From the NCBI RefSeq assembly GCF_988243305.1, contig NZ_OZ547136.1: 64,000 bases of DNA. The stretch is one strand, 5' to 3'. The notes under the pieces are model-generated. The model was not told the DNA's origin. It was given only the letters and a program-made list of their open reading frames with translations, and made no database searches. Positions within the stretch are counted from its first letter, which is position 1. Every line of letters starts with the position of its first letter. Of the stretch, positions 17,515 through 40,489 are shown in pieces. The position numbers were made by a program, and so were the translations under genes.

Positions 17515-17575
17515 AGAGACGCATCCGGCATTTGGCACCGATTGCCGGATGCGGCGCATCCGGCAATACCCACAT
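17515..17575. repeat. REP element between preA and mglC
   Basis: gcatccggcatttggcaccgattgccggatgcggcgcatccggcaat palindromic units. Confidence 0.6.
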
Positions 17576-30539: not shown

Positions 30540-31589
30540 ATGACGAATATCACCTTACAGAAACAACATCGTACACTGTGGCATTTTATTCCGGGGTTAG
30601 CCCTGAGTGCAGTTATCACCGGGGTCGCCCTGTGGGGTGGTTCCATTCCCGCGGTTGCGGGTGCCGGGTTTAGTGCCCTCACCCTCGCAATCTTGTTGGG
30701 GATGGTTTTAGGCAACACCATCTATCCGCACATCTGGAAAAGCTGTGACGGTGGCGTGCTGTTTGCCAAGCAATATTTATTACGTCTGGGTATCATTCTT
30801 TATGGCTTCCGTCTGACGTTCTCGCAAATTGCCGATGTCGGTATCAGTGGGATCATCATTGACGTGTTGACGCTGTCCAGTACCTTCCTGCTGGCTTGCT
30901 TCCTGGGGCAGAAAGTGTTTGGTCTGGATAAGCACACCAGCTGGTTGATCGGTGCCGGTAGCAGTATTTGTGGTGCTGCCGCGGTACTGGCGACTGAGCC
31001 GGTAGTGAAAGCGGAAGCCAGTAAAGTAACCGTGGCTGTTGCAACCGTTGTTATCTTCGGGACCGTGGCGATTTTCCTCTACCCGGCGATATATCCGCTG
31101 ATGTCTCAATGGTTTAGTCCGGAAACTTTCGGTATCTACATTGGTTCTACTGTGCACGAAGTGGCGCAGGTGGTGGCGGCAGGTCATGCCATCAGCCCGG
31201 ATGCAGAAAACGCAGCAGTTATTTCCAAAATGCTGCGCGTGATGATGCTGGCTCCGTTCCTCATCCTGCTGGCGGCGCGTGTTAAACAGCTGTCTGGGGC
31301 GAACAGCGGCGAGAAAAGCAAAATCACTATTCCGTGGTTTGCCATCTTGTTCATCGTAGTTGCCATCTTTAACTCGTTCCACCTGTTACCGCAGAGCGTG
31401 GTGAACATGCTGGTAACGCTGGATACCTTCCTGCTGGCAATGGCGATGGCGGCGCTGGGTCTGACCACTCACGTCAGCGCGCTGAAAAAAGCCGGGGCGA
31501 AACCTCTGCTGATGGCACTGGTACTGTTTGCCTGGCTGATTGTTGGTGGTGGTGCGATTAACTATGTGATTCAAAGCGTCATCGCATAA
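30540..31589 (+). CDS. yeiH: Inner membrane protein, UPF0324/YeiH family
   Basis: 349-aa polytopic protein, divergent from yeiE. Confidence 0.9.
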
Positions 31590-31603
31590 ACCACTACATC
31601 TTG

Positions 31604-31655
31604 CTCCTGTTAACCCGCTATCATTACCGTTTTCCTCCAGCGGGTTTAACAGGAG
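31604..31655 (+). promoter_or_regulatory. Long hairpin between yeiH and nfo whose 3-prime arm contains the nfo Shine-Dalgarno
   Basis: ctcctgttaacccgct ... agcgggtttaacaggag (about 16-bp arms, one bulge, 19-nt loop), ending 7 nt before the nfo ATG. Confidence 0.5.
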
Positions 31656-31662
31656 TCCTCGC

Positions 31663-32520
31663 ATGAAATACATTGGAGCGCACGTTAGTGCTGCTGGCGG
31701 TCTGGCAAATGCCGCAATTCGCGCCGCCGAAATCGACGCAACCGCGTTTGCCTTGTTCACCAAAAACCAACGTCAGTGGCGTGCCGCACCGCTCACGACG
31801 CAAACCATCGATGAATTCAAAGCCGCCTGTGAAAAATATCACTACACATCGGCGCAAATTCTTCCCCACGACAGTTATCTGATTAACCTCGGACATCCGG
31901 TCGCTGAAGCTCTGGAAAAATCGCGCGATGCGTTTATAGATGAAATGCAGCGTTGCGAACAGCTGGGGCTTTCTTTGCTCAACTTCCACCCTGGCAGCCA
32001 TCTGATGCAGATTTCAGAAGAGGATTGCCTTGCGCGTATTGCCGAATCCATCAACATTGCGCTGGATAAAACTCATGGTGTGACAGCGGTGATTGAAAAC
32101 ACCGCCGGTCAGGGCAGTAACTTAGGGTTTAAATTCGAACATCTCGCGGCGATTATCGACGGCGTTGAAGATAAATCCCGCGTCGGCGTCTGCATTGATA
32201 CCTGCCATGCTTTCGCTGCCGGGTATGATTTGCGTACTCCAGCCGAATGCGAGAAAACGTTCGCGGATTTTGCCCGTATTGTCGGCTTTAAGTATCTGCG
32301 CGGGATGCACCTTAACGATGCGAAAAGCACCTTTGGCAGCCGCGTTGACCGCCATCATAGCCTCGGTGAAGGCAATATCGGTCATGATGCGTTCCGCTGG
32401 ATCATGCAGGACGACCGTTTCGACGGCATTCCGCTGATCCTTGAAACCATCAACCCGGATATCTGGGCAGAAGAGATCGCCTGGCTGAAAGCGCAACAAA
32501 CTGAAAAAGCGGTAGCCTGA
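31663..32520 (+). CDS. nfo: Endonuclease IV (AP endonuclease)
   Basis: 285-aa product [39 protein letters not shown]... Confidence 0.97.
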
Positions 32521-32522
32521 AG

Positions 32523-33611
32523 ATGAACAACCGGGAGAAGGAGATCCTTGCAATTTTACGGCGTAACCCGCTGATTCAGCAGAACGAAATTGCGGATATG
32601 CTGCAAATCAGCCGTTCGCGCGTTGCGGCGCATATTATGGATTTAATGCGCAAAGGCCGGATTAAAGGCAAAGGTTACATTCTCACCGAGCAGGAATACT
32701 GCGTAGTGGTGGGGACAATCAATATGGATATTCGCGGGATGGCGGATATCCGTTACCCGCAAGCGGCTTCTCATCCCGGTACCATTCATTGCTCGGCAGG
32801 CGGCGTTGGACGCAATATCGCCCACAATCTGGCGCTGTTAGGCCGCGACGTCCATTTGCTTTCAGTGATTGGCGATGACTTTTATGGCGAAATGCTCCTG
32901 GAAGAAACGCGCCGCGCCGGCGTGAATGTCTCCGGCTGCGTTCGTTTACATGGCCAAAGCACATCGACGTATCTGGCAATTGCCGATCGAGACGATCAAA
33001 TCGTGCTGGCGATTAACGATACCCATCTGCTGGATCAGTTGACACCGCAACTACTGAACGGGTCGCGCGATTTACTTCGTCATGCGGGCGTGGTACTGGC
33101 TGATTGCAACCTGACAGCCGAGGCGCTGGAGTGGGTCTTTACCCTCGCTGATGAAATCCCGGTGTTTGTCGATACCGTTTCAGAATTCAAAGCGGGCAAA
33201 ATCAAACACTGGCTGGCGCATATTCACACCCTGAAACCCACTTTACCGGAGCTGGAAATTTTATGGGGACAGGCGATCACCAGCGATGCTGACCGTAATG
33301 CCGCAGTGAATGCGTTGCATCAGCAAGGCGTTCAGCAACTGTTTGTTTATTTGCCCGATGAGTCTGTTTATTGCAGCGAAAAGGATGGAGAACAATTTTT
33401 GCTGACAGCGCCAGCGCATACGACAGTAGACAGTTTTGGTGCTGACGATGGTTTTATGGCGGGCCTGGTATATAGCTTTCTGGAGGGAAACAATTTCCGT
33501 GACAGCGCCCGTTTTGCGATGGCCTGCGCGGCAATTTCACGCGCCAGCGGCAGCTTAAACAACCCTACCCTGTCTGCCGATAATGCGCTGTCATTAGTGC
33601 CAATGGTGTAA
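32523..33611 (+). CDS. yeiI: PfkB-family carbohydrate/nucleoside kinase with N-terminal winged-helix DNA-binding domain
   Basis: 362-aa product; N-terminus MNNREKEILAILRRNPLIQQNEIADMLQISRSRVAAHIMDLMRKG, then ribokinase-like domain. Confidence 0.9.
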   Translation: MNNREKEILAILRRNPLIQQNEIADMLQISRSRVAAHIMDLMRKGRIKGKGYILTEQEYCVVVGTINMDIRGMADIRYPQAASHPGTIHCSAGGVGRNIAHNLALLGRDVHLLSVIGDDFYGEMLLEETRRAGVNVSGCVRLHGQSTSTYLAIADRDDQIVLAINDTHLLDQLTPQLLNGSRDLLRHAGVVLADCNLTAEALEWVFTLADEIPVFVDTVSEFKAGKIKHWLAHIHTLKPTLPELEILWGQAITSDADRNAAVNALHQQGVQQLFVYLPDESVYCSEKDGEQFLLTAPAHTTVDSFGADDGFMAGLVYSFLEGNNFRDSARFAMACAAISRASGSLNNPTLSADNALSLVPMV

Positions 33612-33652: not shown

Positions 33653-33666
33653 TCATAAATTGCACA

Positions 33667-34917
33667 CTACGCTAAACCAATAAAGAACCCGGCAATGGTG
33701 GCACTCATCAGATTAGAAAGTGTCGCCGCCGCCAGCGCGCGTAAACCAAGCTGGGCGATTTCCGGCGCACGGTGTGGCGCAACCGCAGAAAACGCCCCCA
33801 CCACCACCCCGATAGAACCAAAGTTAGCGAAACCGCACAACGCGAAAGAAATAATCGCCACGGTTTTAGCATCCAGAGTGCCAGCTGTTTGCAGATAAGG
33901 TGAGAAATTGAGGTAAGCGACAAATTCATTAATCGCCAGTTTCTGTCCAATCAAACTCCCGGCAAGATTCGCATCACTCCAGTCAACCCCCATCACCCAC
34001 GCCAGCGGGGCCAGCAGGTAACCTAAAATGGACTCCAGCGAGGCATGTTCAAAACCAAACCAGCCGCCAACGCCGCCGATAATACCGTTAATTAACGCAA
34101 TGATGGCGACAAATGCCATCACTACTGTCGCCACACCTGCGGCGATTTTCAGCCCGGTCATTGCCCCTGTAGCGGCGGCTTCAATAATGCTTTTTGGCGG
34201 TGTTTCGGTGAAAGAGAGGTTATTAAAGGAAACCTGCGAAGATTCGGTAGCCGGGCTTAACAGGCGGGCAAACAAGATCCCGCCAGGGATCGCCATTAAC
34301 GATGCCGCCAGCAGATATTCCACAGGCACGCCCAGTGCAGCGTAACCAATCATTGTCGAACCAGCAATCGAGGCCATGCCACTACAAATCGCTGTAAATA
34401 ATTCATTGCGATTCAGCCGATCGATAAAGGGTTTGACGATTGCCGGAATTTCGTTTTGCCCGAGGAAAATGGTAGTGACCGCGACGAATGACTCGATCTT
34501 GCTGATATTTAATGCTTTCTGGAAGATACCGCCGAGAATGCGAATTAAGATCCCCATCACACCGATGTAGTAGAGAATACTCACCAGTGCTGTAACGAAG
34601 ATAATTGCCGGTAATACCCTGAAACCAAAGATAAATCCTGCGCCATCAAATAAGGTATCCATTTTCGGTCCGACCAGAGAACCAAAGATAAATGCGCTAC
34701 CTGCATCGCTGTACGCCATCACTTTATGCACGCCAAAAGCGACTTTTTCTGCGACCCAACGCCCTGGTGGTAACCAAAGCATAATGCCGCCAATCACGAC
34801 CTGTAACACTAACGCCGCGCCAACGGTACGCAGGCTGATCTTCTTCTTGTTTACTGACAGCAAAAACGCAATTGCCAGTAATACCACCATTCCCAGAACA
34901 CTTCTCATGACATCCAT
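33667..34917 (-). CDS. nupX: Concentrative nucleoside transporter (CNT/NupC family)
   Basis: 416-aa product MDVMRSVLGMVVLLAIAFLLSVNKK...; close paralogue of psuT in this window. Confidence 0.9.
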   Translation of the reverse strand: MDVMRSVLGMVVLLAIAFLLSVNKKKISLRTVGAALVLQVVIGGIMLWLPPGRWVAEKVAFGVHKVMAYSDAGSAFIFGSLVGPKMDTLFDGAGFIFGFRVLPAIIFVTALVSILYYIGVMGILIRILGGIFQKALNISKIESFVAVTTIFLGQNEIPAIVKPFIDRLNRNELFTAICSGMASIAGSTMIGYAALGVPVEYLLAASLMAIPGGILFARLLSPATESSQVSFNNLSFTETPPKSIIEAAATGAMTGLKIAAGVATVVMAFVAIIALINGIIGGVGGWFGFEHASLESILGYLLAPLAWVMGVDWSDANLAGSLIGQKLAINEFVAYLNFSPYLQTAGTLDAKTVAIISFALCGFANFGSIGVVVGAFSAVAPHRAPEIAQLGLRALAAATLSNLMSATIAGFFIGLA

Positions 34918-40333: not shown

Positions 40334-40489
40334 TGAGGAAATAACCTTAGTGTTTGATGAAGGTTTCAGGTTTCTACTAAAAGATAAAACCATTTAAATT
40401 CATAAAATTACATTCACAAACCGGTCATTCTCTTTGCGCGCATCAAATGTTACAGGGCAGGAAATTTCTGCCCTGTAACACACCTTTTA

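Follow-up and report, generated by a model that had tools for sequence, protein, structure and literature searches.

The window, that is, the whole 64-kb stretch of DNA that was analysed, belongs to the chromosome of E. coli. It contains yeiH and nfo on the same strand, separated by a 73-nt spacer whose sequence is identical in MG1655 (a window position is the MG1655 position minus 2,219,177; MG1655 2250780 is window 31603). The upstream gene, yeiH, is presumably under the control of YeiE, and transcripts from it can carry both arms of a hairpin that lies in the spacer. The downstream gene, nfo, codes for endonuclease IV and has been named as a member of the mar/sox/rob regulon (PMC3709825). 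The genes and the parts of the hairpin are the following:

30540–31589, + strand: yeiH coding sequence (PF03601-family inner membrane protein), from the list of open reading frames and the RefSeq annotation of E. coli, including MG1655
31603–31619, + strand: 5′ arm of the hairpin, GCTCCTGTTAACCCGCT, from the RNA folds, an inverted-repeat finder and the conserved ACCCGC core
31620–31638, + strand: hairpin loop of 19 nt, from the RNA fold; its length and sequence differ among genera
31639–31656, + strand: 3′ arm of the hairpin, AGCGGGTTTAACAGGAGT, with U31645 bulged, from the RNA folds and the inverted-repeat finder; conserved parts are the GCGGGT core and ACAGGAG
31651–31655, + strand: Shine-Dalgarno (SD) sequence of nfo, AGGAG, from the sequence; 7 nt (TCCTCGC) before the ATG
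31663–32520, + strand: nfo coding sequence (endonuclease IV) with its ATG at 31663, from the list of open reading frames and the RefSeq annotation of E. coli

The hairpin in the yeiH–nfo spacer

An earlier note on this DNA had described a near-perfect inverted repeat with one bulge and a 19-nt loop, whose 3′ arm carries the SD of nfo 7 nt before the start codon. Both points are borne out by the present analysis. The arms of the repeat are ctcctgttaacccgct (31604–31619) and agcgggtttaacaggag (31639–31655), and the RNA fold extends the stem to 17 pairs, formed between 31603–31619 and 31639–31656 with a closing G-U pair included and U31645 bulged. Over 61 nt, the minimum free energy is −25.8 kcal/mol (z = −7.3), a stability reached by none of 200 dinucleotide shuffles. 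Folding in a 91-nt context gives the same stem (z = −5.2). The hairpin begins 14 nt past the stop codon of yeiH.

Of 5426 complete E. coli genomes, 5425 carry the element as a single copy, and in 5257 the spacer is identical. Two spacer variants were read, namely G31629A in the loop and a 2-nt deletion in the 5′ arm in one strain. In the latter, E. coli Es_ST80_L1_NDM_10_2017, the TG at the equivalent of 31608–31609 is missing; this loss would destabilise the hairpin and bring the marbox closer to the −10 element discussed below. Either the strain carries a rare natural variant or the assembly is in error here.

A search of Rfam gave no match to the hairpin, and a covariance-model search found no further copy in the window or in 80 Enterobacterales loci. 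These loci were obtained by a scan for the Nfo protein; yeiH is directly upstream of nfo in most of them, and Salmonella, Klebsiella and Cronobacter are absent from the set. A dispersed repeat (REP/BIME, ERIC or MITE) and a curated RNA family were considered as identities of the element and rejected, because it occupies one place per genome and has no Rfam match. Elsewhere in the window, overlapping near-perfect palindromes with GCCGGATGCG and CGCATCCGGC at 17520–17567 are REP-like, and a 16-nt inverted repeat at 40448–40480 (TGTTACAGGGCAGGAA and TTTCTGCCCTGTAACA, the arms being 94% complementary and 1 nt apart) is a possible terminator or operator. In the literature searched, to which the classic nfo promoter papers do not belong, no description of the hairpin was found, and the spacer sequence itself, when searched in papers, gave no match.

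Proposed promoter elements of nfo and predicted accessibility of its SD

The spacers of 31 Enterobacteriaceae sequences, with lengths of 59–106 nt, were aligned. They include Escherichia, Citrobacter, Kluyvera, Enterobacter, Leclercia, Lelliottia, Pluralibacter and Pseudocitrobacter, and also Phytobacter, Kosakonia, Cedecea, Shimwellia, Superficieibacter, Pseudescherichia and Siccibacter. The promoter elements proposed for nfo on this basis, and by comparison with micF, are:

31581–31600, + strand (forward orientation): putative SoxS/MarA/Rob site (marbox), ATCGCATAAACCACTACATC, from a consensus match; overlaps the yeiH stop codon
31619–31624, + strand: candidate −10 hexamer of nfo, TATCAT, from the invariant TATnnT in the 31 Enterobacteriaceae; at the 5′ edge of the loop
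31629–31633 (MG1655 2250806–2250810), + strand: predicted region of the nfo transcription start, GTTTT, by analogy with micF; inside the loop

The hexamer TATnnT is the sole invariant block of the spacer in this alignment, and it is preceded by a nearly invariant ACCCGC (at least 90% conserved). It occurs as TATCAT, TATGAT, TATACT and TATTAT, a set of variants that looks like the signature of a −10 element. Its distance from a marbox block of the form ATnGCATAAAC..., which overlaps the yeiH stop codon, is 18 ± 1 bp throughout the 31 sequences, while between 29 and 71 nt separate the hexamer from the ATG. A spacing that is fixed relative to the marbox and variable relative to the start codon is the pattern expected of a promoter from which transcription starts in between.

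The promoter geometry was calibrated on micF, a mar/sox/rob target with an annotated RNA start, where the marbox ACAGCACTGAATGTCAAAAC is followed by 18 bp, the hexamer TAGAAT, 7 nt and then +1. The 18-bp spacing from marbox to −10 is shared by nfo, and a −35 hexamer is absent in both. By this analogy, the start of nfo is predicted at ca 31630–31632, within the loop of the hairpin, and the promoter resembles the SoxS/MarA/Rob class II type, with a marbox, no −35 and TATCAT as the −10 hexamer. As DNA, the 5′ arm of the hairpin then serves as promoter spacer, with the marbox on one side and the −10 hexamer on the other; in the nfo mRNA, the 3′ arm is 5′ UTR. A run of T residues 6–9 nt past the hexamer is nearly universal in the 31 sequences (T57 is at least 90% conserved). 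As pure speculation, a start in this U-run (31629–31633; G/C and then TTT) could permit slippage of the transcript, that is, reiterative transcription.

As to the marbox itself, the consensus given in PMC3709825, AYnGCACnnWnnRYYAAAY, specifies 13 positions, 11 of which are matched by ATCGCATAAACCACTACATC, and this is the sole + strand match with at most two mismatches in the 600 bp upstream of nfo. Taken alone, this match is not significant because the consensus is highly degenerate: 18 matches were found in the window for 18.3 expected, which places ATCGCATAAACCACTACATC at chance level. The GCATAA core of the marbox is kept in 27 of the 31 Enterobacteriaceae sequences, at a fixed distance from the −10 hexamer. 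The only perfect match to the consensus in the 64 kb is ATTGCACACTACGCTAAAC at 33659–33677 (+ strand). The open reading frames 32523–33611 (+) and 33667–34917 (−) converge there with their 3′ ends, so this is not a promoter position, and the match is probably due to chance.

In a SELEX study with the sigma-70 holoenzyme, a promoter peak in the yeiH–nfo spacer was assigned to nfo, with no hexamers assigned to it (PMC3946193). Our promoter scan of 31200–31600 revealed no sigma-70-like promoter. The promoter-like TTAACA-17-TACATT (31646–31674) was rejected, as the start would fall within the nfo coding sequence and the second hexamer is codons 3–4. No start or 3′ end of nfo or yeiH was found in the supplements of Cappable-seq (PMC4782308), the preprint of Adams et al., the Shigella M90T start-site map, ROSE and Romero 2014. 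An entry named RVS_(I)-2248859, which in U00096.2 coordinates seemed to be a start at a distance of 4 nt from the ATG of nfo, was also rejected, since it comes from a Streptomyces coelicolor table.

The position of the start matters for what the RNA can fold into. If transcription begins inside the loop, the 5′ arm is missing from the SoxS-driven nfo mRNA, and the complete hairpin is possible only in RNA that comes from yeiH or from further upstream. In silico, the nfo SD is fully paired in RNAs that start upstream of 31603 (P(unpaired) ca 0). In RNAs starting at 31625–31633, P(unpaired) for the A, G, G and A of the SD is 0.99, 0.29, 0.86 and 0.99, respectively. The short nfo RNA that starts in the loop has no structure beyond that of shuffles (z = −0.64), and a pairing of the 3′ arm with nfo codons 9–12 in this transcript was rejected on the same ground. 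An alternative conformer or a sensor element was not evident. According to this modelling, the SoxS-driven nfo mRNA should have a largely free SD.

These results divide the claims of the earlier note on expression. That RNA initiated upstream of the hairpin hides the SD agrees with the folds, and occlusion is plausible for read-through RNA from yeiH, more than for the transcript of nfo itself, whose SD is predicted to be largely open. The note had further placed the hairpin within the leader of the SoxS-regulated nfo mRNA, and had stated that a start downstream of 31620 would speak against this. The start predicted from the −10/marbox geometry lies there, and the placement in the leader thus finds no support.

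Orthologous spacers and the probable relation to a yeiH terminator

All of the 31 Enterobacteriaceae spacers can form at least 7 pairs that span the −10 hexamer and the predicted start, with a median z of −4.5 and loops of 9 to about 55 nt. The stem is built in different ways. In Citrobacter and Kluyvera, ACAGGAG is lost and the −10 element itself is paired (TATACTC with GAGTATG), while in Cedecea the stem is extended by TATC/GATA. Shimwellia has a perfect 14-bp stem through changes from U-A to C-G, Kosakonia has a change from A-U to G-C, and in Siccibacter the polarity of the arms is swapped, the 5′ arm being G-rich and the 3′ arm C-rich. That lineages keep a stable stem made of different sequence suggests that the stem as such matters, beyond the masking of the SD.

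It can be added that the three Citrobacter loci (L005, L006 and L012) and the one Kluyvera locus (L014) that lack AGGAG have GGCGGGTTTAATTTATG before the ATG, in a region ca 30 nt upstream of nfo. Translation of nfo in these loci must consequently use a weak SD of the GGCGGG type or none.

On fixed alignment columns, covariation is weak and not significant. Double changes occur in 4–5 pairs only, a level equalled by 45 of 500 and 247 of 500 shuffles, and RNAalifold returned no consensus pairs for either of the two alignments. The paired columns are mostly conserved and not co-varying, with 79–81% of the cells able to pair vs 36–49% when the partners are slid. Since the pairing is conserved rather than co-varying, each arm could also have been kept on its own account, the 5′ arm because it spaces the promoter elements and the 3′ arm because it is UTR and holds the SD.

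Concerning termination, the E. coli hairpin has a stable, GC-containing stem of 17 pairs just downstream of yeiH. Its loop of 19 nt is longer than the about 3–8 nt of intrinsic terminators, there is no U-tract after the stem (the tail is UCCUCGCA), and the terminator scan called nothing at this position. From the long loop and the missing U-tract, it is probably a poor intrinsic terminator, and the view of the earlier note that it is not a classical one can be retained. At least four U residues follow the hairpin in 12 of the 31 Enterobacteriaceae orthologues, as for example in GGAGTTTTTTATG.

A link to a terminator is found in Edwardsiella. In two species of this genus (positions 2408–2438 of locus L064, and locus L074), yeiH is followed by a canonical terminator with 14 pairs, a 3-nt loop and the tail TTTTATTTTA, and its 5′ arm is formed by CCTGTTAACC, a 10-mer that also occurs in the 5′ arm of the E. 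coli hairpin. Elsewhere, the 10-mer occurs only twice in 914 kb searched on both strands. The sharing of a sequence that is otherwise this rare indicates that the E. coli hairpin and the Edwardsiella terminator are probably homologous. The loop of the terminator in L064 is TAT where E. coli has TATCAT, which hints at how the promoter may have entered the loop.

In Serratia, Yersinia, Edwardsiella and Providencia, a canonical, separate terminator follows yeiH and no hairpin pairs the SD. The pairing of the SD there is at the level of shuffled controls, a comparison that is indicative only, as the background in shuffles is high, about 0.7. The absence of the hairpin from these terminator-bearing families, together with the shared CCTGTTAACC and the U-tails in 12 of 31 orthologues, is the reason for assigning the hairpin to the 3′ end of yeiH, and it looks like a terminator-derived structure nested over the nfo promoter. 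In most Erwiniaceae whose spacers are as short, no such hairpin is present. In Mixta (L054) and Pantoea (L035 and L049), a small GC hairpin is seen ca 20–45 nt upstream of nfo, for example ATGGCCTGCC...GGCGGGCCAT. It begins at the 3′ end of a −10-like hexamer, and a start 7 nt past the hexamer would truncate it.

Proposed function, alternatives and known systems

On balance, we lean slightly towards a picture in which a conserved RNA hairpin of yeiH-derived transcripts is nested over the core promoter and the 5′ UTR of nfo. Transcription from yeiH would cross the nfo promoter, and the hairpin would form once 31656 has been transcribed, marking or stabilising the 3′ end of the yeiH RNA. In the genera with a U-tract it probably terminates transcription, while in E. 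coli it is more likely to act as a weak terminator or pause, as a barrier to 3′-exonucleases, or as both. RNA that continues into nfo would have its SD locked in a stem of −26 kcal/mol, and no endonuclease IV would be made from it. SoxS-activated transcription would instead start in the loop, giving a leader of ca 32 nt with only the 3′ arm and a free SD. With read-through RNA silent for nfo, expression of the gene would depend on its own promoter.

A more specific proposal, which we regard as possible though rather doubtful, is that a yeiH terminator has been exapted in Enterobacteriaceae. Its loop would have come to hold the −10 hexamer and start of nfo, and its 3′ arm to serve as the nfo ribosome-binding site, such that the choice of promoter decides whether the RNA is translatable; RNA entering from yeiH would be terminated or stabilised, and silent for nfo.

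In considering the hairpin as part of the leader of nfo itself, the starting point is that the SD sits in the 3′ arm and is fully paired whenever both arms are present. If nfo transcription started upstream of 31603, the structure could thus be a translational control that masks the SD, or a processing site, and the SELEX peak in the spacer, which has no hexamers assigned, would leave room for such a start. We find this unlikely, however. There is no sigma-70-like promoter in 31200–31600, and the invariant TATnnT in the loop, with its fixed distance to the marbox and variable distance to the ATG, agrees with transcription starting in the loop. Furthermore, the hairpins of Citrobacter, Kluyvera and Siccibacter are retained without AGGAG inside, and neither an alternative conformer nor a sensor element is evident. 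Cleavage by an RNase III-type enzyme, which would split yeiH and nfo in a bicistronic transcript, was considered as well, as the long, nearly perfect 17-bp stem lies between co-directional genes and has no U-tract. Typical RNase III substrates comprise about two helical turns, though, and the stem is shorter than this; some orthologues have only 7–13 pairs spanning the −10 hexamer. This is the least probable of the explanations considered here.

It is also conceivable that the hairpin has no present function in RNA, being a relic of a former yeiH terminator in which the complementarity of the arms is merely inherited. This would account for a covariation that does not exceed the shuffle controls, for arms that are mostly conserved and not co-varying, for the lack of an RNAalifold consensus, for the E. 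coli copy without a U-tract and for the homology to the arm of the Edwardsiella terminator. Against it, ACCCGC is at least 90% conserved, although class II promoter spacers are, to our knowledge, not normally conserved in sequence. Moreover, several lineages have rebuilt a stable stem from other sequence at −20 to −31 kcal/mol, and compensatory changes are seen in Shimwellia and Kosakonia. To a relic we therefore assign a low probability, similar to that of a hairpin in the nfo leader. Lower still is that of a palindrome acting at the DNA level, as an operator for a dimeric protein or as a cruciform that brackets the −10 hexamer and the start and modulates the promoter. The two arms, at about −28 to −12 and +8 to +25, do lie symmetrically around these elements; each contains a GTTAAC-like sequence, and both DNA strands of the region fold equally well. 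Yet the distance between the arms varies from ca 17 to 59 nt among genera, which means that helical phasing is not kept, and in some lineages the stem has moved into the −10 element or has swapped polarity, which a hairpin can accommodate but a protein site of fixed geometry cannot. Nor is there a known protein that would be a candidate for binding.

Returning to the hairpin nested over the nfo promoter, the proposal would, if correct, describe how two differently regulated genes that are 73 bp apart stay independent. The upstream message would end at a hairpin that also renders any leak-through untranslatable, while the stress promoter escapes by starting in the loop. It would also explain that nfo is a clean member of the SoxS regulon despite its position directly behind yeiH. 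If true, it would be an example of a promoter nested within a terminator hairpin, and compact insulators for synthetic operons could take such a nested arrangement as a natural model. All of the parts, namely a terminator-like hairpin, masking of an SD and a class II promoter, are of known kinds, and their nesting is a neat new instance and not a new principle. The arrangement is tidy and fairly ordinary, and does not touch a long-standing open question.

Of the systems to which the locus can be compared, the class II SoxS/MarA/Rob promoters, represented by micF, share with nfo the forward marbox, the 18 bp to the −10 hexamer and the absence of a recognisable −35. What sets nfo apart is that its spacer and initially transcribed region make up the arms of a hairpin, a kind of repeat that was not noticed when the micF promoter sequence was read. 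Hairpins in 5′ UTRs that sequester the SD, such as translational operators and RNA thermometers, likewise pair the SD in a stable stem near the start codon. They lie wholly within their own mRNA, whereas the predicted start of nfo is between the arms and its own mRNA cannot form the stem. Features prone to melting or suited to ligand binding were not seen in the nfo hairpin. The yeiH terminator of Edwardsiella (L064) also has a GC-containing stem directly after yeiH and shares its 5′ arm CCTGTTAACC with E. coli, but the 19-nt loop of the latter holds the −10 hexamer and the predicted start, and a U-tract is missing.

The likeness to IS10 concerns the logic of the whole arrangement. In IS10, an inverted repeat reportedly brackets the element's own start, so that its own transcripts lack the 5′ arm and are translatable, while transcripts from outside bury the translation initiation region. 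By analogy, the inverted repeat at nfo brackets the predicted start of the gene, and read-through RNA would carry both arms; the 3′ arm lies over the translation initiation region and the 5′ arm would be present only in externally initiated RNA. For IS10/Tn10, and for IS50, PMC13181058 describes fold-back inhibition, citing Davis, Simons and Kleckner (1985), as a protection from external promoters. Unlike the transposase gene of IS10, nfo is a chromosomal stress-repair gene, and it is a defined neighbour, yeiH, from which outside transcription would enter. The nfo hairpin also differs in that it seems to be derived from the terminator of that neighbour. If this holds true, the exapted yeiH terminator would be a conserved, chromosomal equivalent of the way in which IS10 fends off transcription from outside.
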